This document shows, piece after piece, positions 13,010 to 29,541 of a DNA stretch of 29,541 nt (positions are counted from its first letter, which is position 1; every line of letters starts with the position of its first letter). Source of the DNA: a bacterium. Its GTDB lineage: Bacteria; Desulfobacterota; Deferrisomatia; Deferrisomatales; Deferrisomataceae. The notes under the pieces were generated by a model. That model was not told where the DNA came from. It saw only the letters and a program-made list of their open reading frames with translations, and searched no databases. The translations under genes and the position numbers were made by a program. Where the stretch lies: contig JALUTY010000085.1 in assembly GCA_027021615.1 (NCBI GenBank), forward strand, positions 1 through 29,541. Direction: 5' to 3'.

Positions 13010-13031
13010 GGGGCGACGGGCGCGTCGCCCC
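13010..13031 (+). other. Short hairpin in the redoxin-nrdG spacer
   Basis: GGGGCGAC-GGGCGC-GTCGCCCC, perfect 8-bp stem, no U-tract. Confidence 0.5.
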
Positions 13032-13054
13032 TCGTCGTTCGAGCGGAGGCCGAG

Positions 13055-13819
13055 GTGGCGTCACTCCCGGAGATCAAAGGATTCCTGGAAACCTCCTTCA
13101 CGGACTGGAGGGGCCGGGTGGCTGCGGTGGTGTTCCTGGCCCGGTGCAACTTCCGGTGCCCGTACTGCCACAACCACCGGATCGTGACCTCGCCCCACGA
13201 GGTGCCCACCTGGCCGTGGCTGGAGGTGAAAAGCCGCCTGAGCCGGCTCCGGGGGTGGGTGGATGGGGTGTGTGTGACCGGGGGCGAGCCGACGCTCCAC
13301 CCGGGGCTCCCGGCCCTGCTGGAGCGGTTCCGCGCCCTGGGGTTCCGGATCAAGCTCGACACCAACGGGTCCCGGCCCGGGGTGTTGGCGTCGCTGCTGG
13401 AGGCGGGGTTGGTGGACCAGGTGGCCCTGGACGTAAAGGCGCCCCTGGAGCCCGTGCCTTACCGCCGCAACGCCGGCTCCGGTTCGGACCCAGAGATCGT
13501 GGCCGCCACCTTGGAGCTCCTGTCGCCCCTGTCCGTGCCCTTGGAGCTGCGTACCACGGTCCACCCGGCGCTCCTCAGCCGGGAGGAGCTATGCCGGTTG
13601 GGTAAGGATCTGGGGCGGAGGTTTGGGGGGCGGCCCGGGCAGGTGCGGTGGATCCTCCAGCGGTGCCGAGCCGAGGAGGTGCTGGACCCAGGGCTGCGGA
13701 GCGCGCCGCTGCTGTCCCCCGAGGAGTTCGCGGTGTGGGAGCACGCGGCCCGTGCGGCGTTCTCTGAGGTAGATCCCATGCCAGTCGGGGCGTTGGCGAC
13801 AGCCCGGAAACCCGGGTGA
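13055..13819 (+). CDS. nrdG: Anaerobic ribonucleoside-triphosphate reductase activating protein (radical SAM)
   Basis: FLARCNFRCPYCHNHRIV (CxxxCxxC), VTGGEPTLHPGL, LDTNGSRPGVL, VALDVKAPL. GTG start inferred. Confidence 0.85.
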   Translation: MASLPEIKGFLETSFTDWRGRVAAVVFLARCNFRCPYCHNHRIVTSPHEVPTWPWLEVKSRLSRLRGWVDGVCVTGGEPTLHPGLPALLERFRALGFRIKLDTNGSRPGVLASLLEAGLVDQVALDVKAPLEPVPYRRNAGSGSDPEIVAATLELLSPLSVPLELRTTVHPALLSREELCRLGKDLGRRFGGRPGQVRWILQRCRAEEVLDPGLRSAPLLSPEEFAVWEHAARAAFSEVDPMPVGALATARKPG

Positions 13820-15402: not shown

Positions 15403-16347
15403 TCAGAACACCCACACGACGTTGAGCCAGGTGCTCGATCCCTCGGGCATGTTCTTGCCATCGAACTCCCAAAGTTGCTTGGCCACCACGCTGAACCGTC
15501 CCTGGTTCGGCCACCACTTGAGCCCAGGGCCGATCGCGGCCAGCCGGCTGCGGTCGGAGTTCTCTTTCCCGTCGATCTCGTCGTCGGTGGTCTGCCAATA
15601 GTAGAACCCGTTCACCCCGAACCGCCAGCCCGGCTTGGGGGACCATCCCACGGCCCAGTCGAAGTGGAACTCCTGGCCCGGGTCGAGATCCACCTCTTTT
15701 GTGCTGCCGGCCGGCAGGTACTCATCGTTGGTGGTGTTGAAGTCGTACATGAGCTTCACGGAGAAGTCGAACCCGTTCCACAGGTAGGTGGCTGCTAGCA
15801 CCGGCTCGAACGTCCAGTGGTTTCGCGACAGGAGCTGGGTGGATGCGTCCTCGTTGTCGTAGTTCCCGGTGGGGGCCCAGATGTCCACGGCGAACACGGT
15901 GTGGAAGTTCGGGCCGAAGTGCCACCCCAAAATGAACGGGCTGAAAATGATGTCACCGAGCCCTCCGCTGGACTCATCCACCAGGCTCGTGCCTCCGGCC
16001 TTCACATCCACGTCCGCGGTGTAGAAGGGAATGAAGGCGTGCGCCCCCCACGAGGCGCCCAGGATCTTGTAGGGGCTGACCCAGATGAACCGGGGGATCG
16101 CTGCGAACACGCTCGCGTCGAACTCCACGGGGGTCTTTTTGCCCTCGTTGTCCATGAGCCGGTCCTTGTTGATATAGACGAGATAGTTCTTGAAGTAGAT
16201 CCCGGGCGGGGGCAGGGCGCCCACCACGAAGTCCTCGGCTCCGTTGGGGTAGTGCTGGCCTCCGCCGGCTACGGCGGAGCCCGCGCACAGCGTGAGCCCC
16301 AGGACCAATCCGGTCCACCACCAGGTCATGCCGCGTCCTCTTCTCAT
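15403..16347 (-). CDS. Outer-membrane protein, MetA-pathway phenol degradation (SphA)-like family
   Basis: Signal peptide MTWWWTGLVLGLTLCAGSAVA, then NGAEDFVVGALPPPGIYFKNYLVYINKD...GGLGDIIFSPFILGWHFGPNFHTVFAVDIWAPTGNYD...; beta-barrel-like alternation. Confidence 0.7.
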   Translation of the reverse strand: MRRGRGMTWWWTGLVLGLTLCAGSAVAGGGQHYPNGAEDFVVGALPPPGIYFKNYLVYINKDRLMDNEGKKTPVEFDASVFAAIPRFIWVSPYKILGASWGAHAFIPFYTADVDVKAGGTSLVDESSGGLGDIIFSPFILGWHFGPNFHTVFAVDIWAPTGNYDNEDASTQLLSRNHWTFEPVLAATYLWNGFDFSVKLMYDFNTTNDEYLPAGSTKEVDLDPGQEFHFDWAVGWSPKPGWRFGVNGFYYWQTTDDEIDGKENSDRSRLAAIGPGLKWWPNQGRFSVVAKQLWEFDGKNMPEGSSTWLNVVWVF

Positions 16348-16409: not shown

Positions 16410-17570
16410 CTACACCGGATCGGACCACCAGGGCTCGAACCGGTACGGGATGGGGGTTCCGTCCAGGCGGACCCGGGCGCCGCGGCTGTCCACGGGCACG
16501 GTGACGGAGCAGGTCACGGCCGAGGAGCCCTCCCAGCGTTTCCACTTCGCCCAGACCCCCGGGTCCCGGCTCAGGGCGAACACGGCCGGCCCCACCGAGC
16601 TCATGCCCACGATCTCGGCCCCCTCGTTTCGGAGCCGCTCCATGGTCGTCCAGACCTCCTTGCCCCGGTCGCCGTGGAGCTCGATCTCCGCCCTCTTGGA
16701 ACCTCCCTGGGACAGGTCCCAAAGCACGTCTCCCACGGCCCGGAGGTCGCCGGTGAGGGCGGCCGGCAGGAGGTCCATGAACACCCGGTACACCTTTTCC
16801 CGTGCCGCCTGCTCGTCCGCACGGCGGGCGGTTTGGACCAGAGATCGATACTCTGCCGCGCCCGACGAGACCTCGGGTGCGATCTGGGGCAGAATGAGCA
16901 GGGCCCGCAGGTCCTCGGGCAGGGCGACCCGTGCCAACAGCTCACATCGGTCCGACCCCACCACCAGACCCCCGTGCAGGCCGGCCATGGCGCCCACGTT
17001 GGTCTCGAACCCGGGCACCAGACGGGGCGGAGCCGAGGAGAGCTCCTCGCAGTAGTTGTGGGCGACCAGCTTGCGCAGGTCCCGCAGATCCAGGGGCCGT
17101 CCCAAGGCCTCGTTTAAGGCCAGGGCGGCCGCGGTCAGGGTTGCCACCGACGAGCCGAGCCCCATGTGCCGCCGGCCGTGGTCCCGGGTCTGGATCTCCA
17201 CCCCGCCGGGGTATCCGGTGAGGGTGAGGAAGAGGTGGGCCAGGTGCTGCCCCAGCAGGGGGCGGCTCCCCGTGGATCGAACCCCCGGGGCGTCGATCAG
17301 CGTGACCCGTGCCCGGGAGAACAGCCCCACCGCGAACCCCACCCCGCCGCCGCCGGGGCGGCCGAGGTCAAACCGGGTCATGTCCAACACCAGGGCGTGG
17401 AGCCGGCTCGGCACCTCGGCCTCGCACACCGTCCCGGCAGGTGAGGGCTCCACCGGCCGCAGATTTCCCCCCCACGCCACCGGCCAGACGAACCGGGACG
17501 GATCGCCGGGGGAGAAGGCCAGGGCCTCCAGGGACGGGCCAGTCAACAGGGCGCCTCCTGGACCATACAT
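16410..17570 (-). CDS. GHMP-superfamily protein, beta-ribofuranosylaminobenzene 5'-phosphate synthase-like
   Basis: VPSRLHALVLDMTRFDLGRPGGGGVGFAV, TRDHGRRHMGLGSSVATLTAAALALNEALGRPLD, FETNVGAMAGLHGGLVVGS. Confidence 0.65.
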   Translation of the reverse strand: MYGPGGALLTGPSLEALAFSPGDPSRFVWPVAWGGNLRPVEPSPAGTVCEAEVPSRLHALVLDMTRFDLGRPGGGGVGFAVGLFSRARVTLIDAPGVRSTGSRPLLGQHLAHLFLTLTGYPGGVEIQTRDHGRRHMGLGSSVATLTAAALALNEALGRPLDLRDLRKLVAHNYCEELSSAPPRLVPGFETNVGAMAGLHGGLVVGSDRCELLARVALPEDLRALLILPQIAPEVSSGAAEYRSLVQTARRADEQAAREKVYRVFMDLLPAALTGDLRAVGDVLWDLSQGGSKRAEIELHGDRGKEVWTTMERLRNEGAEIVGMSSVGPAVFALSRDPGVWAKWKRWEGSSAVTCSVTVPVDSRGARVRLDGTPIPYRFEPWWSDPV

Positions 17571-17782: not shown

Positions 17783-18895
17783 ATGACGATAAAAGGCCTG
17801 AAATACGACATTGGAGACGCACTGTGGGAAGGGGTCCCGTGCGCGGCGTTCGTAACCGACACTCGAGGACGGGTCGTGGGGTGGAACCCGGCTGCAGAGA
17901 TTCTGACCGGACGTCTGGCGCCGGATGTGGAGGGACGGCCGTGGCAGGAGGCCCTTGGTCGGCCGGACCCGGGGGGGGGGGCAGCTGACTCCCGGGGGAA
18001 CGCTTGGGTGGACACGGTGTGCGACGCCACCCGGGCGGACGGACGCCCCATGCGTCTCCGTCTCCGGTCCCGGCCCGTACGGGACCCGGCGGGCCGGCCC
18101 GCTGGCCGGCTGTGGCTGGCCACCGACCACTCCCTGCGGGACGCGGTGGACCGGAAGCTGGTTCAGTACGAGCGGCTGGCCACCTTGGGGGAGCTGGCCG
18201 CGTCCGTGGTGCACGAGGTGGGCAACCCCGTGTCGGTGATCCTGGGGTTCGCGGCGCTCCTCCAGAGCGAGACCGAGACCGACCCCGACGGATCGATCCG
18301 TCGCCGCATCTACGAAGAGGCACACCGATGCCGCACCCTGATCGACCAGCTGCTGGGCTACGCCCGCTCCGCAACGAGGGGAAGCGCGCCCGCGCCGGTG
18401 CGGCTGGCCGTGGTGGTGGGCGAGACCCTGCCCCTGGTGCGGCACCGCCTGCAGCGAGCCCAGGTGTCGGTGGACAGCCGTTTGCCCTCCGACCTGCCCT
18501 CCGTGTGGGGGGATGCGTCGGAGCTGAAGCAGGTCGTGCTGAACCTTTTGCTGAATGCGGCGGACGTGACGCCCCGCGGAGGGATGATCGAGGTTGTGGG
18601 CGACGTGGTGGAGCGGCAGGAGGAGAGAGGGGGGGACTCCCTTCTTGACCCGGTGCTGCGCCTGGAGCGCCAGACGCGGGTGAGGTTGCGGGTGGGAGAC
18701 CGGGGCCCCGGGCTCCGCGGCCAGGACCCGGAACGGTTCTTCGGACCGTTCGTGACCACCAAGGAGAAGGGCGGGGGATTGGGGCTCACCGTGTGCCGCC
18801 GCATCGTGGAGGCGTGGGGGGGGACCATCCGGCTCGAAGAGCGCGAGGGGGGAGGAGCCTGGGCCGTGGTGGAGCTTCCCGCACACGCCGGGTAA
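17783..18895 (+). CDS. PAS-domain sensor histidine kinase
   Basis: PAS FVTDTRGRVVGWNPAAEILTGR; LATLGELAASVVHEVGNPVSVILGFAALL (H-box), LKQVVLNLLLNAADVTP (N), DRGPGLRG, GGGLGLTVCRRIVEAWGG. Confidence 0.92.
   Translation: MTIKGLKYDIGDALWEGVPCAAFVTDTRGRVVGWNPAAEILTGRLAPDVEGRPWQEALGRPDPGGGAADSRGNAWVDTVCDATRADGRPMRLRLRSRPVRDPAGRPAGRLWLATDHSLRDAVDRKLVQYERLATLGELAASVVHEVGNPVSVILGFAALLQSETETDPDGSIRRRIYEEAHRCRTLIDQLLGYARSATRGSAPAPVRLAVVVGETLPLVRHRLQRAQVSVDSRLPSDLPSVWGDASELKQVVLNLLLNAADVTPRGGMIEVVGDVVERQEERGGDSLLDPVLRLERQTRVRLRVGDRGPGLRGQDPERFFGPFVTTKEKGGGLGLTVCRRIVEAWGGTIRLEEREGGGAWAVVELPAHAG
17971..17981 (+). repeat. Homopolymeric G11 tract inside the histidine kinase gene
   Basis: CCGGACCC-GGGGGGGGGGG-CAGCT, in the coding frame for DPGGGAADS. 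Confidence 0.9.
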
Positions 18896-18904
18896 CCCCT
18901 CCTC

Positions 18905-19188
18905 ATACCAAGTTGCGTTCAAACCAAGATCCGTCCGGGGGCCAGGGCAGGGGGCCTGGTTCCGGCCGTGCGGGAGTGCAGCATCCGCCTCACGCGGCCC
19001 CCGACACTCAGCCCGAGTGTCCCATGAACGGTAGAAAAGCGAACGTTGGCAATGCATTTCGGGTCACCGGCAGAGCGGGTATCGGCTGAGTGCCGGGGGC
19101 CGCGACTGTCGGAGCCACGCCCGGCGCTCCACCAGGCCCCTTGCCCCGCCGGTTCAGGGGTCTGATGGCCTTGAACGCAACTTGGTAT
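18905..19188. mobile_element. 284-bp MITE-like non-coding element with perfect 18-bp terminal inverted repeats
   Basis: Ends ATACCAAGTTGCGTTCAA (18905-18922) / TTGAACGCAACTTGGTAT (19171-19188); internal 19-nt inverted repeat with one mismatch (18995-19013 / 19085-19103); GGGGCCTGGT / ACCAGGCCCC arms. Confidence 0.8.
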
Positions 19189-19736
19189 CAGCCCCCGCCG
19201 TAAAGGAGCTCTCGCAGCCGCCGAACCACCCGGGGCACCGCCTCCAGGTGCCGGATGGGGCACGGCAGGGTCCAGTCCTGCCAGGGGCCCAGGAGCTCGG
19301 CATAGGGATCTGCGCAGGCCCGGGAGAGCCGGAGGGGCACCTGCGGGAAATGCCGCTCTAGGGTCTGTCGCAGGCACGCCACCAGCCGGTCCCGCTCGGT
19401 CTCTCCCTCTGCATGGAGGACCAGGGCCGAGGTCCCGTACCGATCCCGCCGACCCCCCAGCTTGCCGTGGAGGTAGAGGTCCGGGTGGTCCTCGGCCAGC
19501 TGGCCGAGGATCTCCATGCAGGTTGTCTCGTCCGGGGCCGCGGCCACCACCTTCCAGCAGTCCCAGGCATGGGGCAGGTCGATCTCCGTCCGGTCCGTCT
19601 TCAGTTGGTCCAGCAGCCCGGCGAGGCACGGCAGGCACCGCTCGTGGATTCGGCGCTTCGTGCGTTCCATTCGGGGGTGGGTCTCGAAGCTCCACCACCC
19701 CTCCCGGGACACCCGGTGCCCGAAATGGACCTCCAT
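19188..19736 (-). CDS. Hypothetical protein (about 182 aa; may start at 19811)
   Basis: Open frame downstream of the ligase and 61-aa gene: MEVHFGHRVSREGWWSFETHPRMERTKRRIHERCLPCLAGLLDQL...; stop codon abuts the 18905-19188 element. Confidence 0.55.
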   Translation of the reverse strand: MEVHFGHRVSREGWWSFETHPRMERTKRRIHERCLPCLAGLLDQLKTDRTEIDLPHAWDCWKVVAAAPDETTCMEILGQLAEDHPDLYLHGKLGGRRDRYGTSALVLHAEGETERDRLVACLRQTLERHFPQVPLRLSRACADPYAELLGPWQDWTLPCPIRHLEAVPRVVRRLRELLYGGG

Positions 19737-19759: not shown

Positions 19760-19945
19760 CTACGGCGTTTTCGTCCCAGCAGGCGGCTCGAAATGGGCCC
19801 GGAGCACCCACAGGGTCCCCTCCATCCGGCGCACGTTCCGCTCCACCGCCGGGATGCCGTCCCCGGCCCGCTCCAGCTCCCTCAACGCCGAGGCCACCCG
19901 GTCCAACGCCTCGGCCACCTCACGGATCCGATCGTCCGGAGCCAT
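19760..19945 (-). CDS. Small hypothetical protein (61 aa)
   Basis: MAPDDRIREVAEALDRVASALRELERAGDGIPAVERNVRRMEGTLWVLRAHFEPPAGTKTP; ATGA overlap with the upstream ligase stop. Confidence 0.55.
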   Translation of the reverse strand: MAPDDRIREVAEALDRVASALRELERAGDGIPAVERNVRRMEGTLWVLRAHFEPPAGTKTP

Positions 19946-21288
19946 CACGCGCCTCCCTCCTTGCGAAGATCGTGGAACCTCCGGGCCTTCACCTGGTAGC
20001 GCGGCAGGCTGCCGTAGGGCTGGGGCTGGATGTCGAAGTTGAGCTGGGTCTTCCACCGGAGCCGGCTGGCCAGCTCCTTGAGCAGGCCGTCCCGGTCCGG
20101 CGGGGCCAGCCCGTCGGGCAGCTCCACCTTGAGGGTGATGTGATCCAGGTCGCCGCGCTTCTCCACGAAGATCTCGAACTCGCCGTCCAGCTCCTCGAAC
20201 GATCGGACCACCTCCTCCACGGTGACCGGGGAGAACAGCACCCCCTTCACCTTGGTGATGTGGTCCACCCGGCCGTGGACCCCCCCTTCGAGGATGCGCC
20301 AGGTGCGGCCGCATTCGCATCCGTCCGCGGCCCACATGGACACGTCCTTGGTGTCGAACCGCACGCACGGCTGGGCCCTCCGGTCGAAGGCGGTGATCAC
20401 GATCCGTCCCGGCACGCCGGGCCGGGTCACCGGGCGGTCGGAGTCAAGCTCCAGGAGCTCCACCAGGAACATGGACTCGATCACGTGCTGGCCCCCGGGC
20501 TGGTGCCGGCACTCGAACCCCCATGCGCCGACCTCGGTGGCGCCCACGTGGTCGTAGACGGGGCATCCCCAGGCGTCCTGCATGCGCTTCTTTGTCGTCG
20601 GAACCGAGGCCCCGGGCTCCCCGGCACAGGTGATCCGCCGGATGCCCCACTCCCGGGGGTCGGCGCCCAGGTCCTTGCGCGCGGTCTCGGCCATGCCCAG
20701 CACGTAGGTGGGGGTGGCCATGAAAGCGTTGGTCTTGAGCTCGCGCATCTTGAGCAGCCGCTCCCGGGTGCCCAGAACGCCCCCGGGGACCACCTCGCAC
20801 CCGAGCCGCTCGGCCCCGTAGTGGGCGGTCCAGAAGGCGATGAACACGTGGTAGCCGAAGGGGAAGAACACCCGGTCGGTGGGGCGGTACCCCTGGGCCC
20901 ACAGGATCGTGGCCCAGAGCTCCGAGAACCACTCCCAGTCGGCCCAGGTGTCGGGCTGGTACACGGGGGTGCCGGTGGTGCCCGAGGTCTGATGGTACTC
21001 GGTCACCTCCTCCAGGGGCACGCACAGGGTGTCGCCGTAGGGAAACGGGTCCGTGCCCTGGCACCGGTAGTCGTCCTTGGTCACCAGGGGCACCTTGGCC
21101 AGGTCGTCCCAGGTCCGCACGTCCTCCGGACGAAGGCCGGCCTCGTCGTACTTGCGGCGGTACATGGGGCTTCGCTCGTACACCCAGGCGAGCACCCGCC
21201 GGAACTTGGCCAGCTGGATCTCCCGGAGCCGGTCCGGGTCCAGGGTCTCGGTGATCGGGTTCCAGTACTCGGTCTCCGGGTACGGCAT
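19945..21288 (-). CDS. Phenylacetate/aryl-CoA ligase-like AMP-forming enzyme (PaaK family)
   Basis: SPMYRRKYDEAGLRPEDVRTWDDLAKVPLVTKDDYR, EYHQTSGTTGTPVY, GAWGFECRHQPGGQHVIESMFLVELL, ITKVKGVLFSP. Confidence 0.88.
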   Translation of the reverse strand: MPYPETEYWNPITETLDPDRLREIQLAKFRRVLAWVYERSPMYRRKYDEAGLRPEDVRTWDDLAKVPLVTKDDYRCQGTDPFPYGDTLCVPLEEVTEYHQTSGTTGTPVYQPDTWADWEWFSELWATILWAQGYRPTDRVFFPFGYHVFIAFWTAHYGAERLGCEVVPGGVLGTRERLLKMRELKTNAFMATPTYVLGMAETARKDLGADPREWGIRRITCAGEPGASVPTTKKRMQDAWGCPVYDHVGATEVGAWGFECRHQPGGQHVIESMFLVELLELDSDRPVTRPGVPGRIVITAFDRRAQPCVRFDTKDVSMWAADGCECGRTWRILEGGVHGRVDHITKVKGVLFSPVTVEEVVRSFEELDGEFEIFVEKRGDLDHITLKVELPDGLAPPDRDGLLKELASRLRWKTQLNFDIQPQPYGSLPRYQVKARRFHDLRKEGGA

Positions 21289-21398
21289 GGTTTCTCTCCG
21301 AGGCTAGGAAGCTGGAAGGCTAAAAGGCTAGAAGGCTAGGAAGCTGGAAAGCCAAAGACCTCCGCGATCTTTAAGCGCTGCGCCGTCACCACAAGTCG

Positions 21399-21492
21399 GG
21401 GATGCCTGGGGCCTGGTGGAGCGCCGGGCGTGGCTCCTACAGTCGCTGCATTCGGCACTCACGCACGGCCGAAACCAGGCCCCAGGCATCCC
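21399..21492 (+). repeat. Long-stem hairpin repeat element, short form of the GC-rich family
   Basis: Perfect 19-bp inverted repeat GGGATGCCTGGGGCCTGGT (21399-21417) / ACCAGGCCCCAGGCATCCC (21474-21492); interior GGAGCGCCGGGCGTGGCTCC is shared with the reverse complement of 18905-19188. Confidence 0.8.
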
Positions 21493-21533
21493 TATTGACC
21501 CGGCGGACAAACAGGCGCTATCGCTCACTGCTC

Positions 21534-21702
21534 GGACCTGCCGGAGAGCCGGGCGCGGCCCCTTAACTCGCCGCGCAGCGCCTCCGACGCTCGGATCGCG
21601 AAATGGTTCGGATTCCACCGAGTTGTCATGAAACCAGCTCTTCGGTCCCGTGCCTGCGCGGCGAATCCCATGCCCGGCTTCGCGCCCGGCCTTTAGGCAG
21701 GT
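21534..21702. repeat. Additional family member with GGACCTGCC / GGCAGGTCC arms
   Basis: GGACCTGCC (21534-21542) / GGCAGGTCC (21694-21702) and GCCGGGCGCG (21548-21557) / CGCGCCCGGC (21679-21688). GGAGAGCCGGGCGCGGCCCCTTA is shared with the 21752-22025 element. Confidence 0.65.
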
Positions 21703-21751
21703 CCCTTGCCCCGCCCTCCGAGGTGCCGCGCTTATTTTGCCGCCAGGTTAA

Positions 21752-22025
21752 TACTAACTACCAACGGAACTATTGTCAGATCCCCGGCGTTCACAAGGGA
21801 ACCAGCGGGTGGGGGGCTGGTGGAGAGCCGGGCGCGGCCCCTTACGTCGCCGCGCCCTCACCCGGCCTGGATCGCTCTGTAAGTTCAGGAACTTCCGCCA
21901 CCAGCGCCCCGGCCTACCGGGCTGACAACGGCATGCGAAGGCGCGGCGAAGGGGATGCCGCACTCGCGCCCGGCCGGAACCAGTCCCCCACCCGCGTCCG
22001 GCAATACCTTCGTAGGCCTTAGTAA
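21752..22025 (-). repeat. 274-bp structured repeat element (family A/D), copy 2
   Basis: Reverse complement closely matches 1517-1790 from TTACTAAGGCCTACGAAGGTATTGCC through GGGGATCTGACAATAGTT-CGTTGGTA. Confidence 0.85.
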
Positions 22026-22052
22026 GCTTTGGCGCGGCTGGGGAGTTCCCGG

Positions 22053-22067
22053 CGGGCCGAAGGCCCG
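22053..22067 (-). terminator. Short strong hairpin just downstream of ubiX
   Basis: CGGGCC-GAA-GGCCCG immediately 3' of the ubiX stop on the minus strand; no T-tract. Confidence 0.35.
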
Positions 22068-22073
22068 AAGGGC

Positions 22074-22670
22074 TCATCCTCCCGCCGACAGCACCTTCAC
22101 GTCGCTGCCCTTCCAGCGGCGGAACAGGTTGTGCTCGATGCGGAGCTGGTCGAGCACTTTGCCCACGGTCTGATCCACGATCTCCTCCACCGTGCGGGGG
22201 CGGTGGTAGAAGGCCACCATAGGGGGCAGGATCACCGCCCCGATGTCTGCGCACCGGCGGAGGATGTCCAGGTGCCCCTTGTGCAACGGGGTCTCCCGGA
22301 ACAGCAGGACCAGGGGCCGGCGCTCCTTCAGGGTCACGTCGGCCGCCCGCACCAGCAGGTTGTCATTGTACGAGTTGGAGATGGCCGAGGCGGTCTTCAC
22401 CGAGCAGGGGGCCACCACCATGCCCTCGGTCAGGAACGATCCGCTGGCAATGGCCGCTCCCACGTCCTCGGGGTCGTAGACCTTGGAGGCCAGGGCCTCC
22501 ACCCGCTCCGGGGTCCAGTCGCTCTCGAGCCGGATGTTGCGCCGGGCGGCCTTGGAGAGGATCAGATGGGTCTCCACCCCGAGCTCCCGGAGCACCTGCA
22601 AGAGCCGGATGCCGTACTGGGGGCCGGTGGCCCCGGAGATGCCAACCACCAATCTACGGGGTACGTTCAT
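22074..22670 (-). CDS. ubiX: UbiX-family flavin prenyltransferase
   Basis: RRLVVGISGATGPQYGIRLLQVL, VVAPCSVKTASAISNSYNDNLLVRAADVTLKERRPLVLLFRETPLHKGHL, ADIGAVILPPMVAFYHRP. Confidence 0.93.
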   Translation of the reverse strand: MNVPRRLVVGISGATGPQYGIRLLQVLRELGVETHLILSKAARRNIRLESDWTPERVEALASKVYDPEDVGAAIASGSFLTEGMVVAPCSVKTASAISNSYNDNLLVRAADVTLKERRPLVLLFRETPLHKGHLDILRRCADIGAVILPPMVAFYHRPRTVEEIVDQTVGKVLDQLRIEHNLFRRWKGSDVKVLSAGG

Positions 22671-24010
22671 CGCTCTCTCCTCGTGAGGAACCCAAGGGCC
22701 CGTTCCAATGCCGGCCCAGGGACTCGGGCCCGCCGTCCGGGTACCCGATGGTACCCGGTGGCGTCCACCCCTGCCTTGGCCGTGACCGCGTGCTCGTGGG
22801 CCGAAGGGTCGATGGGCTGGCCCTGGAGACCCGGCAGGATCACCCAGTCCCGGTCGGGCTGGGTCCGGCTCACCACGGACCACTCCACGTCCCAGGGGTC
22901 TTCCACGTCCACGTCCTCGGCCACGGCCACCACCTGCTTCACCCGGGTCTCGCGCAGCAGGATCTTCAGGAATGCCCGGATCCGGTCCGGCGTTGTCGGA
23001 GCGAGCCGGACCACCACCGAGGCGCCGTACGAGAACGGGACGGCCCGGACCGCCGTGACCTCGACCGGCACAGACCCGAGCAGGGCCTGCACGGAGGCCT
23101 CGGCCACCATGCCTAGGAGCCGGTCGGCCTCCCACCCGGTGGGGAGGAGGGCGTGGTACAGGGGGCTCTGCCGGCACCGGACCGATCTCACCACGAAGGT
23201 GGGGGTGGCGGAAAACGATACGTGGTACCCGCTGATCTCCCCGAACGGGCCGTCCGGGCGCTCGTCCGAGGGGTCGATCTCGCCCTCCAGCAGGATCTCG
23301 GCCTCGGCCGGCACCGGGATACCGGTGTGGGGGGCGCTCACCAGGTCCACGGGCTCCCCCCGCAGGGCGCCGGCCGCGGCCATCTTGTCCTCGCCGGCGC
23401 GCCCCTTGAGGGCTGCGGCGAGAAAGGTGAGCGGCTCGTGCCCCAGGGTCACAGCGGCCGGCAGGGGCCGGCCCGTCGCCTTGGCCTCGGCATACACCTC
23501 GGACAGGGGCGGGTTCAGCAGGGCCACGCCGAACCGGTCCGGCCCGCGCTGCTCCATGCGGTGGACGCCCCGGGCCACGGTGCCGGTGCGGGGATCCACG
23601 GCCGAGACCACGGCCGTAGTCAGGAACGCCCCGGAGTCGCCCTCGTAGTGGGTGAGCACGGGCAGAAGCTCCCCGATCTCTGCCGGCTCGATCGACCGTT
23701 CGAGCACGGGGCCGTCGGCCCCGGTCCGCGGCGGGACCTCGGCGGTGCACCGCTCCACGAACGCGCGGCCGGCCCGCTCCGGGGGCACGCCCAGGCCATG
23801 GGCCAGGACCTCGTCGTGGCACAGCACGTTCCCCACCACCGGCAGCGGGCCCCGGTCGGTCCGGCCCACGTGCACGGCTCGATGCTGCCGGGACGCCACG
23901 TGGAGCAGGGCCGCCACCTCGTGCCGCACCGACACGGGGCCCCCCACCTCCGCCAGGCGACCACAGGCCTGGAGGAACGCCACCACATCGGTCAGGTCGC
24001 GGAACGCCAC
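22667..24010 (-). CDS. UbiD-family (de)carboxylase paralogue 1, divergent
   Basis: VAFRDLTDVVAFLQACGRLAEV, GVHRMEQRGP, VPVPAEAEILLEGEIDPSDERPDGPFGEISGY; overlaps the ubiX start (ATGA). GTG start inferred. Confidence 0.85.
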   Translation of the reverse strand: MAFRDLTDVVAFLQACGRLAEVGGPVSVRHEVAALLHVASRQHRAVHVGRTDRGPLPVVGNVLCHDEVLAHGLGVPPERAGRAFVERCTAEVPPRTGADGPVLERSIEPAEIGELLPVLTHYEGDSGAFLTTAVVSAVDPRTGTVARGVHRMEQRGPDRFGVALLNPPLSEVYAEAKATGRPLPAAVTLGHEPLTFLAAALKGRAGEDKMAAAGALRGEPVDLVSAPHTGIPVPAEAEILLEGEIDPSDERPDGPFGEISGYHVSFSATPTFVVRSVRCRQSPLYHALLPTGWEADRLLGMVAEASVQALLGSVPVEVTAVRAVPFSYGASVVVRLAPTTPDRIRAFLKILLRETRVKQVVAVAEDVDVEDPWDVEWSVVSRTQPDRDWVILPGLQGQPIDPSAHEHAVTAKAGVDATGYHRVPGRRARVPGPALERALGFLTRRER

Positions 24011-24023
24011 GATCCGTGCTCCC

Positions 24024-24278
24024 CTACCGCCACGCTTCCGGGATGGGGTCCACCTCCTCCACCACCCGGATCGACCAGGGCTCGCCCACCCATTGCCCGC
24101 GGCCCAGGCGGGGCCACAGCCTTTCCGGGTACTTGGAGGGCTCACTCGACACCTTGGCCCGGACCACCTGGCACCGGTACTTGGCCCGGCCCGGGGTGAG
24201 GTCCCGGATCACCAGGCGGATCTCCTCGTCCTGGGGGACCTCCTGCAGGTTCTCGAAGAACGCGTCGTACTCAGCCAT
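24024..24278 (-). CDS. Small protein (84 aa), candidate gamma-type subunit of a phenylphosphate-carboxylase-like enzyme
   Basis: MAEYDAFFENLQEVPQDEEIRLVIRDLTPGRAKYRCQVVRAKVSSEPSKYPERLWPRLGRGQWVGEPWSIRVVEEVDPIPEAWR, 13 bp from the UbiD-1 start; subunit assignment rests on context and resemblance. Confidence 0.5.
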   Translation of the reverse strand: MAEYDAFFENLQEVPQDEEIRLVIRDLTPGRAKYRCQVVRAKVSSEPSKYPERLWPRLGRGQWVGEPWSIRVVEEVDPIPEAWR

Positions 24279-24339
24279 GGTTCGGACTCCTTGCCGGTAA
24301 CTTCGGTCGTCGGTCGTCAGTCTGGGCCTTCGGCCATAT

Positions 24340-24540
24340 CAGGGGCCAGAATTCAGAAGTCAGTAGACAGGGAGAAGGATCTTCGGTGCGTCGAGAGGAT
24401 CCCCCCGGGAAACCGAACTGCTTTTCGGGATTTCCTGTCTTCTGTCCGCTGAAATCTGTCTCCTGAACCGTCGGCCCCATGCCTCCGGCGTGAAGGCTTC
24501 GGACCAACAAACGTTACCCTTCCCCGTTGTAGGGCTCCGC
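24340..24540 (+). repeat. Intergenic repeat family E, diverged copy 2
   Basis: CTCCTGAACCGTCGGCCCCATGCC...GGACCAACAAACGTTACCCTTCCCCGTTGTAGGGCTCCGCAGGGGCC matches copies near 1259 (minus) and 27040. Confidence 0.6.
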
Positions 24541-24556
24541 AGGGGCCTCACGGGGC

Positions 24557-26005
24557 TTATTCGGAAAACCCGTATGCCTTCCAGTTGGCCAGCACCTTGT
24601 CCCGGATCTCCTGGGGGTAGACCGTGTCGAACGCCACGAGGATCGGGATGTCGGAGGGCTGCCAGTCCCGCGGGAACAGGCAGTCGAACAGCACCTTGGC
24701 GCCCTTGCCCATGCGGCGCTCGGCCGGGGTGGCAAACGGGTTCAAAGGAGTGCCCACGTCCCCTTCGTACACGTGGATGCCGTTGACCGGATGGCATCGG
24801 GTGCTCAGGGCGTGGATCACCTGGTTCTTGTTGTAGATGTCGGTGTTCTCGTCCACCACCACCACCATGTGGAACCAGGGGCCCAGCTTGCTGCCGAACA
24901 CCAGGTTGGCGATCTGGCGGGCGATGCCGGTGTACGCGTGACGGGTGCCGATCACCACCAGGTGGTGGGTGGACTCGGGCCACATGTACACGCCGGTGAT
25001 CGGGATGCCCTGGCTCCGCAGGAGCTTCTCCATCTCGAGGCTCAGGGAGAACGACCGCAGGAGCTGGCCCTCGTCCGTGGGCACGCCCATGTTCGACACG
25101 GTGAGGATCGGGTTGTCCCGGAAGGTGATCGCCCGGATCCGGTACACGGTGCGCCGTTCCCGGGGCGAGGTGCGGTAGCCGGTGTACTCCCCGAAGGGGG
25201 CCTCCTCGAGCCAGACGCCCGGCAGCACCTCGCCCTCGATGATGATCTCGGCGTGGGCCGGCACCAGCAGGTCGGAGGTCTCGCACTTCACCACCTCCAC
25301 CGCCTCGCCCATGAGGAGGCTCGCGAACTCGTCCTCCGGGATCGGGGAGGGCGCGCAGGCGGCCACGCCGGACAGCGGGTCCATGCCGATCACCGTGGCG
25401 AACGGCATGGGCTGGTTCCGGGGCACGTACTTGTTGAAGAACATCTTGCCCATGTCGGAGAACGGCAGCACCGGGCCCACCATGGTCTTCTCGTCGAACA
25501 CCATCTGGCGGTACATGCCCCAGTTCACCTCTCCGGTGTCCGGGTCCTTGGCCACCACCATGTGCCAGGTGGCCAGGTACCGGCCGCCGTCGCCGTCGTG
25601 GACCATGGGCGCGGGCAGGTTGAACAGGTTGGCGTCGTCGCCCGTCCACACGTTCTGCTTGCACGGGGCCCGGCTGCGGTCCACCACCCTGGGCTTGAGG
25701 GGCTCGCCCCGCTCGGTGCGCTCCACATAGGCCCTGCCGATCTCCGGGATCGGGGTGGCGGCCGGAAGCCCCAGGGACACCGCCAGCTTCCGGTAGGTGG
25801 CCAGGGGCGCGCCCAGGGCCTCGAAGCCGGGGTAGTCCTTGATCTTCTTGAAGTGGGGCGACGGGCCCTGGAGCTCGCACACCCGCCGGACGATGGCCCC
25901 GAGCTCCAGGTCCCAGTCCACCTCGGGCTCGACCGTGACCAGGTCTCCGGTGGCCCGCAGGGCCTCGATGAACTCGCGGTTGTCCTTGTAGTAGCGGTAC
26001 GCCAT
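24557..26005 (-). CDS. UbiD-family (de)carboxylase paralogue 2 (PpcA/PpcB-like)
   Basis: MAYRYYKDNREFIEALRATGDLVTVEPEVDWDLELGAIVRR, EVNWGMYRQMVF, LLVPAHAEIIIEGEVLPGVWLEEAPFGEYTGYRT. Confidence 0.92.
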   Translation of the reverse strand: MAYRYYKDNREFIEALRATGDLVTVEPEVDWDLELGAIVRRVCELQGPSPHFKKIKDYPGFEALGAPLATYRKLAVSLGLPAATPIPEIGRAYVERTERGEPLKPRVVDRSRAPCKQNVWTGDDANLFNLPAPMVHDGDGGRYLATWHMVVAKDPDTGEVNWGMYRQMVFDEKTMVGPVLPFSDMGKMFFNKYVPRNQPMPFATVIGMDPLSGVAACAPSPIPEDEFASLLMGEAVEVVKCETSDLLVPAHAEIIIEGEVLPGVWLEEAPFGEYTGYRTSPRERRTVYRIRAITFRDNPILTVSNMGVPTDEGQLLRSFSLSLEMEKLLRSQGIPITGVYMWPESTHHLVVIGTRHAYTGIARQIANLVFGSKLGPWFHMVVVVDENTDIYNKNQVIHALSTRCHPVNGIHVYEGDVGTPLNPFATPAERRMGKGAKVLFDCLFPRDWQPSDIPILVAFDTVYPQEIRDKVLANWKAYGFSE

Positions 26006-26017
26006 GGGGATCTCCCT

Positions 26018-26140
26018 TTCATGTAACTTCCGCTAGAAGGCTGGAATGCCAGGAGGCTAGAAGGCTTGGAATCCTGCCGGATTCCCATGCGTTCTAGGAA
26101 TCACCACGCCTCTTTGTCTCCACCTCACGGTCCGGAAAGC
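26018..26140 (-). repeat. Duplicated leader/spacer upstream of UbiD-2
   Basis: TTTCATGTAACTTCCGCTAG...CGGATTCCC..GC.TTCTAGG.ATCACCA.GCCTC...CCACCTCAC.GTCCGG shared with 26770-26890. Confidence 0.75.
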
Positions 26141-26217
26141 ATGGTCTAGTTTCTAGTCTCTAGACGGCCCCGCAGGGGCCTGATGGAGCTTTCGTCGTGG
26201 AGCCGGGCTCTGTGGCC

Positions 26218-26760
26218 TCAGCCCCAGCCCATGTTCGCGATCTTCTCCACCAGGGCGCCCCATCGGCCCTGGGCCCTGAGGATGAACTCGGCCAGCTCCC
26301 GCAGCATGCCCTCGCCGCCGGCCCTGCGGGTGATGAGATGGGCCGCGTCCCGGACCTCGGGGACCCCGTTGGCCGGGCACACCGCGAATCCCACCCGGCG
26401 CATGGCGCCCAGGTCGATGATCTCGTCGCCCACGTAGCACACCTCGTCGGGGCCGATGCCGATCTCGGCCATGATCTCCTCCATCTTGGCCCACTTCTCC
26501 TTGGCCGCGTACACCCGCTTGATGCCCACCTCCTGGGCCCGGGCGAACACGATTTTGGACTTGCGGGTGAGCAGCGCCACCTCGATGCCCGACATCATCA
26601 GCACGTTGGCCCCGAACCCGTCGTCGTGGTGGAACACCTGGAACTTCACGCCGTCCTCGTTGAACAGGACCATGCCGTTCGTGAGCACGCCGTGGACGTC
26701 CAGGACCACCAACTTCACGCGCTTGGCCCGCTCGATCGCATCCATCATGTCGTAGGCCAT
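26218..26760 (-). CDS. HAD-superfamily KdsC-like protein / phenylphosphate carboxylase delta-like subunit
   Basis: KLVVLDVHGVLTNGMVLFNEDGVKFQVFHHDDGFG, ALLTRKSKIV, AAKEKWAKM, CYVGDEIIDLGAMRRVGFAVCPANGVPEV. Confidence 0.85.
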   Translation of the reverse strand: MAYDMMDAIERAKRVKLVVLDVHGVLTNGMVLFNEDGVKFQVFHHDDGFGANVLMMSGIEVALLTRKSKIVFARAQEVGIKRVYAAKEKWAKMEEIMAEIGIGPDEVCYVGDEIIDLGAMRRVGFAVCPANGVPEVRDAAHLITRRAGGEGMLRELAEFILRAQGRWGALVEKIANMGWG

Positions 26761-26769
26761 GGAATGCCT

Positions 26770-26890
26770 CCTTTCATGTAACTTCCGCTAGGACGCTGGG
26801 AGGCTGGGACGTTAGGAGGTTTGAAAACCTCCCGGATTCCCGCGCCTTCTAGGCATCACCATGCCTCCTCGCCTCCACCTCACAGTCCGG
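26770..26890 (-). repeat. Duplicated leader/spacer upstream of the HAD gene
   Basis: Shares its ends and internal blocks with 26018-26140. Confidence 0.75.
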
Positions 26891-26891
26891 G

Positions 26892-27080
26892 GGCATGGGG
26901 ATCAGGAGTCAGAGGACAGACGTCAGTGGACAGGGCGTGGTCCCACGACGCCGCTTTGGCCCCAGTGTCTTTGCCCCTCTTCTGGCTCCTGTCCCCTGAA
27001 ACCCATGCCCCGCCGCCGATGGCCCCAGGACCACCAAGCGTTACCTTTCCTCGTACCGGGCCTCGCAGGGGGACTGGAGG
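26892..27080 (+). repeat. Intergenic repeat family E, copy 3
   Basis: Matches the reverse complement of 1259-1450 over most of its length. Confidence 0.75.
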
Positions 27081-27099
27081 GGCTTTTCAGTAAGCTCTC

Positions 27100-28515
27100 T
27101 CAGCCGTCCAGCCCCAGCTCCTTCCAGCGTTTCTTGATCCGCTCCACCACCTCGGGCACCAGGGCCACCTCCACCGGCTTCTGCTCCCACTCGAACGGAA
27201 CGGTGGCGTCCAGCAGGATGCGGGAGGTGATGAGCTTGTTGGAGTCGGGGTCCAGGGCGGGGTCCAGGGGCGTGGAGCGGCCGCGCTGGATGATCTGGGT
27301 GTCCCGGGCCGGATCGAACCGGGTGGCCAAGGCCCACCAGACCCGGGGCAGGTCGTCGGCGCGCACGTCGTGGTCCACCACGATCACCCCCTTGGTGCCG
27401 TAGGTGCAGGTGTTGCTGGCCACCACCGCGGCCGCCACCTGGTTGGCGTGGCCGGGGTACATCTGGCGCACGCTCACGATGGCCCAGAACCGGCCGCAGG
27501 CCTCCGGCGGCAGGTACACCGACTCGATGCCGGGGATCCGCATCTTCTCCAGCTCGGTCCACAGCGTGGCCCCGCGCACGAACGCGAGCATCCAGTGGTT
27601 GTCGGTGACCGGGCGGCCCACGGACGTGGCCCACAGGATCGGCTTGTTCCGGTGGTACACGCGTTCGACCACCATGGAGGGTTTGGGAATGGGGTGGAAC
27701 AGCTCGTCGGTGTAGTACCCGGTGTACTCGCCGAACGGTCCCTCGGGCCGCAGATCGTCGGGGTCGATCCAGCCCTCGAGCACGATCTCCGCGTCGGCCG
27801 GGATCGGAAGGCCGGTGACCTTGCCCTGGGTGACCGTGACCGGCTCGCCCCGGAGCGACCCCACCACGTCGTACTCGCTGGCCTTGGCCACCATGGCGCT
27901 TCCCGCGAGCATGAGGAGGGGATCGCACCCGATCACCACGCAGGCGGGCATCTTCTGCCCGGCCTTCTTGTACTTCTTCAGGATGCGGTCGCCCCGCTTG
28001 CCCTTGAGGATCTGGACCCCGATGCGGTTCTTCTCCTGGGCCTGCATCCGGTAGGTGCCCAGGTTGATCTCACCGGTCTCGGGGTCGCGGGTCACCAGGA
28101 ACACGGCCGTGCCGATGTAGCGGCCGCCGTCCTTCTCGAAGAACCGGGGGGAGGGGAACCGGAAGATGTCCACGTGGTCGTCGCTGTACTCGTTTTCAAA
28201 CACCGGTCCCGACTCCACCTCCTGAGCCGGGATGATCTTGTCCACCGCGAGCTTCATCCACTCGCGGGTGAGCTCGCACAGGCTCAGATGGGTGGGTTTG
28301 CCCAGGGCCAGGGCCAGCCGCTGGGTGGTGGCGAACGCACCCGTGAACACGGGGCTGTCGTAATCCTTGACGTTCTCGAACAGGAGGGCCGGCCCCTCCT
28401 GTTCCTCCACGAGCTTGGCCACGTGGCTGAGCTCCAGGTCCCAGTCCACCTCGGCGCCGATCCGCTTGAGCTGCCCCTCTTCCTCGCAGCGGGCGATGAA
28501 GTCCCTGAGGTCCAT
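27100..28515 (-). CDS. UbiD-family (de)carboxylase paralogue 3 (PpcA/PpcB-like)
   Basis: MDLRDFIARCEEEGQLKRIGAEVDWDLELSHVAKLV, EINLGTYRMQAQ, ADAEIVLEGWIDPDDLRPEGPFGEYTGYYTDE; RBS AAGGAGGG. Confidence 0.93.
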   Translation of the reverse strand: MDLRDFIARCEEEGQLKRIGAEVDWDLELSHVAKLVEEQEGPALLFENVKDYDSPVFTGAFATTQRLALALGKPTHLSLCELTREWMKLAVDKIIPAQEVESGPVFENEYSDDHVDIFRFPSPRFFEKDGGRYIGTAVFLVTRDPETGEINLGTYRMQAQEKNRIGVQILKGKRGDRILKKYKKAGQKMPACVVIGCDPLLMLAGSAMVAKASEYDVVGSLRGEPVTVTQGKVTGLPIPADAEIVLEGWIDPDDLRPEGPFGEYTGYYTDELFHPIPKPSMVVERVYHRNKPILWATSVGRPVTDNHWMLAFVRGATLWTELEKMRIPGIESVYLPPEACGRFWAIVSVRQMYPGHANQVAAAVVASNTCTYGTKGVIVVDHDVRADDLPRVWWALATRFDPARDTQIIQRGRSTPLDPALDPDSNKLITSRILLDATVPFEWEQKPVEVALVPEVVERIKKRWKELGLDG

Positions 28516-28659
28516 GTCTCCCTCCTTCGCAAAAAATCGTTTGATGAGTTGCGACTCTAGCGCCCGGTGGAGGCGGGGTCCAATCATATGTTTTGCGTTG
28601 ATGTATAAGGTGGGGTTATGCTCTTGGTCGCAGGTCGTCACCCGCCACCCGTTACTGCC
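28516..28659. promoter_or_regulatory. Divergent promoter/operator region between UbiD-3 and LysR genes
   Basis: 144-bp AT-enriched divergent spacer containing ATCATATGTTTTGCGTTGATGTAT; possible LysR-type T-N11-A site. Confidence 0.45.
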
Positions 28660-29541
28660 ATGCTCAACTTCAACCAGCTACGAACGTTCTACGAGGTCGC
28701 ACGGAGCGGAAGCTTTACCCGGGCGGCAGAGACCCTGTGCGTCACCCAGCCGGCCGTGTCGGGGCAGATTCGGGCCCTGGAAGAGGCCCTGGGGCTTCGG
28801 CTGTTCCGGCGTCGGGGGCGGAGCATGGTGCTGACCGAGGCGGGGACGCTGGTGTTCCGGCAGGCCGAGCGGGTGTTCGCCCTGGAGAGGGAGATCGAGG
28901 GGCTGGTGGAGGAGCTCCGGAACGTACGCCAGGGGCTGCTCAAGGTGGGCACCACCAAGACGTACGCCCGGTACGTGATGCCCGACATCCTGGGCCGATT
29001 CCACGCCGCATACCCCGGGATCCGGATCGTGCTGGACGAGGGGGCGTCCGCGGCGGTGGTCCGGTCGGTCCTCGAAGGCGGCAGCGAGATGGCCGTGGTG
29101 GGCCTGGCGGAACCGGTCCGGGGGCTGCGGTGCGTTCCGTTCCGGCGGGAGGAGGTGGTGCTGTTCGCCGCCCCGGGCCACCCCCTGGCGGGCCGGGGCG
29201 GGGTGGGGTTTTCGGAGCTGGCGGGGGAGCTGATGGTCCTCAAGGAGGAGGGCTCGACCACCCGCACCCTGGTGCGCGATGCCTGTCGGCGGCACGGTGT
29301 CTCGCCCAAGGTGCTGGTGGAGACCAGCAACCTGGAGTTCATCAAAGACGTGGTGGCCCGGGGGGAGGGGATCTCGTTCTTGGTTCGGTGCGCGGTGGAG
29401 GAGGAGCTGAGGGCGGGGAAGGTGGTGGAGATCCCGCTCCGGGACGAGCGCCTATGGCTGGACGTGTTCATCGTGTGCCCGGAGCCGGACGTGCTCTCCC
29501 CGGCCGCGCGGGCGTTCCTGGAGATCCTGGAGAAAAGCTAG
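28660..29541 (+). CDS. LysR-family transcriptional regulator
   Basis: MLNFNQLRTFYEVARSGSFTRAAETLCVTQPAVSGQIRALEEALGLRLFRRRGR plus substrate-binding domain; complete to TAG at 29539-29541. Confidence 0.95.
   Translation: MLNFNQLRTFYEVARSGSFTRAAETLCVTQPAVSGQIRALEEALGLRLFRRRGRSMVLTEAGTLVFRQAERVFALEREIEGLVEELRNVRQGLLKVGTTKTYARYVMPDILGRFHAAYPGIRIVLDEGASAAVVRSVLEGGSEMAVVGLAEPVRGLRCVPFRREEVVLFAAPGHPLAGRGGVGFSELAGELMVLKEEGSTTRTLVRDACRRHGVSPKVLVETSNLEFIKDVVARGEGISFLVRCAVEEELRAGKVVEIPLRDERLWLDVFIVCPEPDVLSPAARAFLEILEKS

Follow-up and report, generated by a model that had tools for sequence, protein, structure and literature searches.

The closest described counterpart of the gene island analysed here is the phenol cluster of Thauera aromatica, which comprises ppsABC, ppcBCAD and further phenol-induced genes. 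Its phenylphosphate carboxylase (Ppc) catalyses a phenylphosphate-dependent carboxylation, exchanges 14CO2 with 4-hydroxybenzoate and is sensitive to oxygen (PMC6114531). The cluster also encodes a UbiX-like protein (ORF8) and a phenylacetate-CoA-ligase-like protein (ORF14), and the homologue of the latter in Desulfatiglans anilini has been assigned as 4-hydroxybenzoyl-CoA ligase (PMC6114531). In the T. aromatica locus used for comparison (L081), a sigma-54 regulator is followed by ppsA and ppsB for phenylphosphate synthase (Pps), ppcB, the delta subunit gene, ppcA, the gamma subunit gene, a third UbiD gene, ubiX, a riboflavin-kinase-like gene, a PaaK-like ligase gene and an outer-membrane channel gene. 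Here, we analyse a 29,541-nt stretch of DNA (contig JALUTY010000085.1, hereafter the window) from a bacterium of the order Deferrisomatales, which appears, judging by its sequence, to be an undescribed Deferrisoma-like species. The original prediction had described a phenylphosphate-carboxylase-like gene island on the minus strand, with an extra divergent UbiD and without a visible Pps, that might act on a different aromatic compound. Our analysis indicates that the island very probably belongs to a canonical pps-ppc cluster for the anaerobic degradation of phenol, of which it forms the carboxylase half.

Results

The assignment is carried by two of the three UbiD-family proteins of the island. 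The alpha protein reaches 688.5 bits in the PpcA equivalog family TIGR02723 of NCBIfam (cut-off 564.6) and the beta protein 697.7 bits in the PpcB equivalog TIGR02724 (cut-off 468.95). They are 60% and 62% identical to their T. aromatica counterparts and 92% and 91% identical to PpcA and PpcB of Deferrisoma. Homologues of alpha were collected by a one-genome-per-species scan with an alignment of alpha, and the loci were annotated by tblastn, which revealed a clear identity gap: the PpcA clade lies at 59% or above, with 59-62% for PpcA of T. aromatica, Aromatoleum and Sulfuritalea, whereas the UbiDs of N47, NaphS2, Thermincola and others (20 other loci) do not exceed 48%. None of the 20 loci below 50% alpha identity carries pps or delta. 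By neighbour joining, all three UbiDs of the window cluster with their positional counterparts in T. aromatica, and alpha and beta stand apart from the carboxylase-like UbiDs of N47, NaphS2 and Thermincola. Close grouping of the two proteins with characterised PpcA and PpcB had been named beforehand as a mark of a standard phenol pathway, and this is where both the equivalog scores and the tree place them.

Other carboxylase and decarboxylase families were considered as well. A benzene or naphthalene carboxylase (AbcA-like) and a VdcBCD-type decarboxylase were both rejected because of the scores, the identity gap and the tree. In the case of VdcBCD, the three UbiDs score 309, 239 and 172 bits in NF041204 (VdcC), for which 650 are required, and NF041206 is matched with 237 against 290. 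Phthaloyl-CoA decarboxylase was set aside on the PpcA and PpcB equivalog passes alone, without comparison to a reference sequence.

Around alpha and beta, a gamma subunit and a probable delta subunit are in place. The delta protein is 44% identical to the gene product at the same position in T. aromatica and scores 124 bits in the KdsC subfamily TIGR01670, over the cut-off of 107; the 84-aa gamma protein scores 60.9 bits in PF09662 (Phenyl_P_gamma; threshold 25) and is 38-39% identical to the T. aromatica gamma subunit, which occupies the syntenic position. The four subunit genes are adjacent on one strand in the order B-D-A-C (24024-28515). Their products have the lengths of the Deferrisoma orthologues (PpcB 471 aa, delta 180 aa, PpcA 482 aa, gamma 84 aa), as does the third UbiD with 447 aa, and UbiX (198 versus 201 aa in Deferrisoma) and the ligase (447 versus 449 aa) differ slightly; from these reading frames, all genes of the island look intact and none pseudogene-like. 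The gene content that had been predicted is thus borne out: open reading frames (ORFs), a GC3 frame check and the Pfam and NCBIfam scans recover every named gene on the minus strand in the order given, and family scores and synteny with T. aromatica identify an alpha, beta, gamma and probable delta set of phenylphosphate carboxylase together with UbiX and a CoA ligase. As a side observation on delta, loci of the Syntrophorhabdus type and the Desulfosarcina type contain two tandem delta-like genes.

But where is the phenylphosphate synthase? Pfam and NCBIfam scans of the plausible ORFs detected no PEP-utilizers or PPDK_N domain in the 29.5-kb window, so the statement that it contains no pps gene was correct. 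lysR, the regulatory gene divergent from ppcB, runs to the very end of the window, and its stop codon (29539-29541) forms the first bases of a ~190-bp repeat that resembles a miniature inverted-repeat transposable element. The repeat continues in a twin contig (L002, 7656-7807), where the 149 nt after lysR form one arm of the element. Seven full copies (L091-L097) are present in the JGI metagenome Ga0256830, on contigs without a ppc locus, and the aligned copies have terminal inverted repeats of ~16 nt (CCCGCATGATTCATGA...TCATGAATCATGCGGG). Three independent assemblies break off at this element or within it: those of the window, L002 and L003. The adjacency of pps is unreadable in the window, as its last codon is the lysR stop and already belongs to a multi-copy repeat; the lack of a visible pps is therefore most likely an effect of the assembly and the window edge, and uninformative on the biology. 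The proteins of the window, used to search for a longer contig, matched just the 7.8-kb twin and a 1.7-kb contig. Among homologues of PpsA from a related locus (L004), the best candidates for the ppsA of the source organism came from other species, with a PpcB only 81% identical. Six-frame translation of the 149 nt past lysR and BLAST against the relatives, meant to detect a convergent HAD or ZapB gene ending there, gave no match.

The nearest relatives show what can lie on the other side. Two Deferrisoma contigs, L103 (D. palaeochoriense, GCA_054656955.1) and L107, break in the gap between lysR and the HAD gene, L103 ending ~140 nt past lysR. In Deferrisoma sp., a 62-kb contig (L106, GCA_054681715.1) reads through this gap, which is filled by a different inverted-repeat element; the ppc genes of this contig are just as close in identity to the window as the L103 genes. 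Its gene order is tgt, ppsA, ppsB, flavin reductase, riboflavin-kinase-like, type-2 isopentenyl-diphosphate (IPP) isomerase, HAD-IA phosphatase, lysR and ppcB. The same layout, with pps followed at some distance by the HAD gene, lysR and ppcB, recurs in L004, where alpha is 87% identical, and in L098/L099. An adjacent synthase had been proposed as the second mark of a standard phenol pathway: in the closest relatives (L106, L004 and L098/L099) it is found, while the window itself is unreadable on this point. We consider it probable that ppsAB adjoin lysR in this strain too, and more probable still that they are present somewhere in its genome.

The genes between ppsB and lysR in the relatives encode a flavin reductase, a CTP-type riboflavin-kinase-like protein, a type-2 IPP isomerase and a HAD-IA phosphatase (L106, 4504-7387; L004, 1314-1865 and 5709-6775). 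The type-2 isomerase of L106 scores 298 against an equivalog cut-off of 281, and in L004 a Nudix gene precedes ppsA. Combined with UbiX, this set looks like a self-contained supply of prenylated FMN (prFMN); its genes could provide FMNH2 and dimethylallyl phosphate.

The third UbiD had been taken as an unusual addition. What argues otherwise is the T. aromatica gene order and a survey of 25 species-representative loci of the PpcA clade, each flanked by 7 kb or more on either side: third UbiD, UbiX and riboflavin-kinase-like genes are each present in 24 of the 25, ppsB in 22 and the ligase in 14. An extra UbiD is thus a regular part of phenol clusters. The window protein matches only generic UbiD domains in Pfam and NCBIfam, and its nearest solved structure is HmfF (6h6x, E = 3e-55); its identity is 36% to the UbiD in the corresponding place of the T. 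aromatica cluster and 66% to that of Deferrisoma. The metal-site Asn of the N-x-G-x-Y/H-R motif is replaced by Ala (ARGVHR), with GPFGE and the motif Arg kept; the same position is Gly in the Thauera counterpart and Asn in HmfF. The gene call in the twin contig (L001) puts the start at 24010 and not at the GTG further upstream in the long ORF, which leaves 13 nt between gamma and this start; at its other end, the gene overlaps ubiX by 4 nt. A prFMN-handling role of the third UbiD together with UbiX is conceivable because of this overlap and because the pair is kept in 24 of the 25 clade loci. UbiX itself passes its families clearly, with 256 bits in NF004685 (cut-off 188) and 246 bits in TIGR00421 (cut-off 109).

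The ligase scores 229.9 bits in the PaaK equivalog TIGR02155, far from the cut-off of 646.3, and is 39% identical to the ligase of the T. aromatica cluster and 92% identical to that of Deferrisoma. On this basis it is PaaK-like in fold only, not PaaK itself, and an orthologue of the phenol-cluster ligase; by analogy with ORF14 and its D. anilini homologue, we presume that it is a 4-hydroxybenzoate-CoA ligase. Downstream lie the two ORFs without an assigned function that the original prediction had counted to the island. Both exist, encoding 61 and 182 aa, and both lie outside the span given for the island, to the left of its start. The start of the 61-aa ORF shares 1 base with the ligase stop codon; its product looks helical, and homologues occupy the equivalent place in L004, L008/L011 and L103. 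The 182-aa protein has conserved Cys and Trp residues (CLPC and CWK motifs) and orthologues in 10 other delta-type phenol loci; it has no match in Pfam or NCBIfam, and its single-sequence AlphaFold2 (AF2) model is unusable at a pLDDT of 43. Orthologues of both small ORFs are found in many delta-type phenol loci, not in Thauera.

The regulatory genes and the channel gene are conserved features of such loci. lysR takes the same position in all Deferrisomatales-type loci, with a product 75% identical to that of Deferrisoma; the PAS kinase keeps its position in L004, L006, L008, L014 and L103; and the sigma-54 regulator is 86% identical to the same-position protein of D. palaeochoriense. A scan for the sigma-54 promoter pattern gave 6 matches versus 9 expected by chance and nothing usable, and an Rfam scan of the window found no family. 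Homologues of the Phenol_MetA_deg channel occur in the T. aromatica and Aromatoleum loci, and upstream of ppsA in L008.

In all Deferrisomatales-type ppc loci inspected (L004, L006, L008, L014, L103), the genes for the PAS kinase and the sigma-54 regulator enclose one for a GHMP-fold protein. The protein of the window matches PF00288 weakly and does not reach the cut-offs for beta-RFAP synthase (58 bits against 328 in NF040726, 44 against 113.5 in TIGR00144). Its AF2 model has a pLDDT of 90.8, and in Foldseek the best TM-score belongs to ForT (6yqq/8aoz, TMq 0.63), an enzyme of beta-RFAP-synthase type that depends on phosphoribosyl pyrophosphate, and the best E-value to homoserine kinase (4p52, E = 4e-16). 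The family alignment shows RPGGGG, DHxxxHxGLGS, FETGVG, GSKRAE and GMSSVGP as invariant. The nearest homologues are from Deferrisoma (75% identical); elsewhere, the family occurs in Desulfotomaculia, such as Desulfoscipio gibsoniae (L105), where the gene is next to genes with PRAI, ADH and DeoC domains, and in methanogens.

What stands out in the DNA between the genes is the amount of repeats. Gaps inside the operon are long (339, 212, 278 and 785 nt versus 10-30 nt in L004) and are filled by dispersed repeats common to the metagenome Ga0256830 and other intergenic sites of the window. A 267-nt element is present in two inverted copies, 1517-1783 and 21759-22025, which are 93% complementary; it also lies between ubiX and the ligase gene in D. 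palaeochoriense (L103, 6116-6473), where it has been called as a 105-aa ORF. The 785-nt gap between ubiX and the ligase gene contains this element, 39-nt repeats and, just upstream of the ligase start, 8-nt tandem arrays. Such arrays (CTAGCCTN on the coding strand) are located at 21295-21374, 26024-26079, 26787-26826 and 6367-6419, that is, in the 5' leaders of the ligase, ppcA, HAD and epimerase genes just before the start codons, and are rich in CCUCC/CCUUC, similar to an anti-Shine-Dalgarno sequence. A 139-nt repeat (25997-26135 and 26752-26890) is additionally common to the leaders of ppcA and the HAD gene and ends in the same ...ctagcggaagttacatgaaaggagg... ribosome-binding region. These leader repeats could be a translational control element, or mere repeat debris.

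The gene map of the window is given in Table 1. At ~69% G+C, the raw ORF lists are full of false frames, and the map was built from the GC3 frame check, the Pfam and NCBIfam scans and the gene calls on the twin contig (L001/L002), which is 99.99% identical. Further from the island, genes for a SagB-type nitroreductase, a peroxiredoxin, a thioredoxin, an ECF sigma/anti-sigma pair and nrdD/nrdG are collinear with D. palaeochoriense; these neighbours fit a strict or facultative anaerobe. Housekeeping genes are also found in this part of the window.

Table 1. Gene map of the phenol-type island and its surroundings (positions within the window).
Feature	Positions	Strand	Basis and remarks
lysR, LysR-type regulator	28618-29541	+	PF00126 + PF03466; divergent from ppcB
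ppcB, phenylphosphate carboxylase beta (UbiD family, UbiD-3)	27100-28515	-	first gene of the operon; TIGR02724
ppcD-like delta, KdsC-type HAD phosphatase	26218-26760	-	TIGR01670; synteny with T. aromatica
ppcA, phenylphosphate carboxylase alpha (UbiD family, UbiD-2)	24557-26005	-	TIGR02723
ppcC, 84-aa gamma subunit	24024-24278	-	PF09662
Third UbiD paralogue (UbiD-1)	22667-24010	-	generic UbiD domains only
ubiX, flavin prenyltransferase	22074-22670	-	NF004685, TIGR00421
Intergenic stretch of 785 nt with dispersed repeats	21289-22073		repeat finding
PaaK-like aryl-CoA ligase, presumed 4-hydroxybenzoate-CoA ligase	19945-21288	-	PF14535 + PF00501
61-aa small ORF, conserved	19760-19945	-	homologues at the same position in relatives
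182-aa conserved protein, function unknown	19188-19736	-	no Pfam/NCBIfam match
PAS histidine kinase	17783-18895	+ (opposite to operon)	PAS + HisKA + HATPase_c
GHMP-fold protein, beta-RFAP synthase/ForT-like	16410-17570	-	PF00288 (weak); AF2 + Foldseek
Outer-membrane channel, Phenol_MetA_deg family	15403-16347	-	PF13557, 221 bits
Sigma-54-dependent response regulator (receiver + AAA+ + HTH_8)	13889-15346	-	Pfam; NtrC/AtoC-like matches in NCBIfam
nrdD/nrdG, anaerobic ribonucleotide reductase, and further neighbours	7218-7973, 7992-8789, 8820-9284, 9294-10150, 10400-13819		

Discussion

The pathway that we infer from the gene identities, clade membership and synteny is modelled on the T. aromatica system (PMC6114531, PMC7500099). 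PpsAB, encoded outside the window and presumably just past lysR across the repeat, would convert phenol to phenylphosphate, with ATP going to AMP and Pi. The HAD-type delta subunit would then take the phosphoryl group off phenylphosphate to leave an enzyme-bound phenolate, to which the alpha-beta-gamma core would add CO2 in the para position, yielding 4-hydroxybenzoate. UbiX is predicted to make the prFMN for the UbiD-type subunits, and the PaaK-like ligase would form 4-hydroxybenzoyl-CoA. The outer-membrane channel may let the substrate in, and the LysR protein together with the pair of PAS kinase and sigma-54 regulator would set expression.

How firmly does this assignment stand? Several observations weigh against it. 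In the PpcD equivalog TIGR02726, the delta protein scores 146 bits, under the cut-off of 282, and the gamma protein scores 62.5 bits in TIGR02725, under the equivalog cut-off of 135.6. HAD motif I of delta reads LDVHGV (residues ~20-25): the Asp at +2 is His, giving DxH and not DxD, and this DVHG in place of DVDG is a concrete reason for the low TIGR02726 score. The same DVHG is present in every deltaproteobacterial-type and Firmicutes-type PpcD orthologue examined, and DVDGV in Thauera, Aromatoleum and Sulfuritalea. Some of the more distant relatives have no neighbouring synthase: pps is missing within 10 kb in L012, L049 and L065, and L006, with a PpcA 80% identical, has ZapB/ZapA and RNase Y genes past lysR and no pps in the 21 kb covered. 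In L101, a metagenome-assembled genome (MAG) of the Deferrisomatales, pps is unlinked from ppc. No sequence of the source organism past the repeat was obtained, so that the adjacency of pps is inferred and not seen; a literature search for activity or growth of Deferrisoma on phenol gave nothing relevant; and the substrate is not readable from the sequence.

Do these points call for a different substrate? The absence of pps from the 29.5-kb window, the atypical delta with its DxH motif and sub-threshold TIGR02726 score, and the few relatives without pps within 10 kb would suit a Ppc-like (de)carboxylase that works without phenylphosphate synthase on a non-phosphorylated or polyhydroxylated aromatic. 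We regard this as highly improbable, as equivalog score, identity gap and tree all mark alpha and beta as orthologues of PpcA and PpcB, a phosphatase-type delta makes sense only with a phosphorylated substrate, and the nearest relatives, at ~91% identity, have ppsAB beside lysR. In addition, the window ends where a repeat interrupted the assembly, and a further UbiD is usual in phenol clusters. The step from extra UbiD and missing pps to another substrate, or to an under-described system, does not hold in view of the PpcA/PpcB clade, the T. aromatica gene order and the repeat at the edge. Less easily dismissed is an arrangement in which the phenol pathway is kept with ppsAB elsewhere in the genome, the repeat after lysR marking a rearrangement and not a mere assembly gap. 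A mobile-looking element sits exactly at the junction, pps and ppc are apart in the Deferrisomatales MAG L101, and L006, L012, L049 and L065 have no pps within 10 kb. However, the closest relatives by every protein (L106, then L004 and L098/L099) keep pps, the HAD gene, lysR and ppcB in the common layout, and in L106 the gap holds another inverted-repeat element with the linkage unbroken, so that we consider such a separation unlikely in this strain.

A phenol analogue as the main substrate would be handled by the same logic of phosphorylation followed by carboxylation; catechol or hydroquinone could be used via an aryl phosphate, and aniline via phenylphosphoamidate. T. aromatica is reported to carboxylate catechol with its phenol enzymes, and substrate specificity cannot be read from the sequences compared here. 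For aniline, D. anilini uses homologues of Pps and of the beta subunit of Ppc; that system, however, consists of two beta-type subunits without gamma or delta (PMC7500099), whereas the full alpha-beta-gamma-delta set is present here. Since alpha and beta also score as PpcA and PpcB equivalogs and the neighbouring channel belongs to the outer-membrane protein family of the phenol pathway, we give an analogue little credence. Phenol degradation through a pps-ppc cluster is the reading that we prefer.

The GHMP-fold gene makes speculation enticing. It is doubtful that its product is a working part of the Deferrisomatales phenol system and not a bystander. If it is, one possible role would be the conversion of 4-hydroxybenzoate with phosphoribosyl pyrophosphate (PRPP) or ATP into a signal for the two-component system; less likely is a cheaper phenol kinase that turns ATP into ADP. 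The DxH delta could be part of the same altered mechanism. How energy-limited anaerobes afford the activation of phenol is a question raised before (PMC6114531), and a phenol-kinase role, if true, would bear on the cost of this step.

This work removes a false lead, as the synthase most likely seems to be missing only because a repeat cut the assembly short, and an extra UbiD is normal in phenol clusters. It also places a full alpha-beta-gamma-delta phenol cluster in Deferrisoma-type iron reducers, which are not known as phenol degraders in the literature searched, and the closest relative adds what looks like a full prFMN-supply set to this cluster. What is left as novel is confined to side features, none of them tied to a function, among them three small oddities of the strict-anaerobe version: the DxH delta, the third UbiD without the metal-site Asn and the GHMP-fold gene in the regulatory module.

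Finally, we would like to set the locus beside the known systems, beginning with the more distant ones. VdcBCD/ShdBCD and 4-hydroxybenzoate decarboxylase also combine UbiD, UbiX and a small subunit and carry out reversible para-(de)carboxylation of phenolics. However, they have no HAD subunit, and the small subunit of the window belongs to PF09662, so that a small subunit of the Vdc/Shd type was not identified. The naphthalene and benzene UbiD clusters (N47, NaphS2 and the AbcA-like clusters of Thermincola/Peptococcaceae) likewise contain several UbiDs and UbiX, with a gamma-like gene in 4 of 20 loci, but their UbiDs do not exceed 48% identity to the window alpha, form separate tree branches and are accompanied by neither a HAD delta nor pps. 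Geobacter metallireducens and D. anilini follow the same pathway logic, with a PaaK-like ligase as 4-hydroxybenzoyl-CoA ligase (PMC6114531). In those organisms gamma is absent, and alpha and delta are encoded elsewhere or there is just a beta homologue (PMC6114531), whereas the window has the full set in one operon.

T. aromatica comes closest among the characterised systems: the Ppc genes follow the same order (beta, 18-kDa HAD, alpha, 10-kDa subunit), and third UbiD, UbiX, ligase and Phenol_MetA_deg channel come after them in both. The delta motif differs, being DxD there and DxH here, and a ppsC-like CBS gene is not seen in the window or the relatives. In turn, the window has the additional GHMP-fold gene, the two small conserved ORFs and the repeat-filled intergenic gaps. 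Regulation also appears to be organised differently, with LysR and a PAS-kinase/sigma-54 pair here versus a one-component sigma-54 activator (PheR) in Aromatoleum (PMC10715001). Closest of all is Deferrisoma. The window is collinear with D. palaeochoriense and Deferrisoma sp. over ~22 kb (for contig L103 of D. palaeochoriense, positions 6425-28821 of the window), the non-aromatic neighbours included, and Ppc subunits, UbiX and ligase are 89-93% identical. At 74-88% nucleotide identity it is nevertheless a different species, and another repeat element occupies the gap after lysR. Of the two Deferrisoma loci, only the contig of Deferrisoma sp. shows the region past lysR, and there it carries ppsAB and the cofactor genes.

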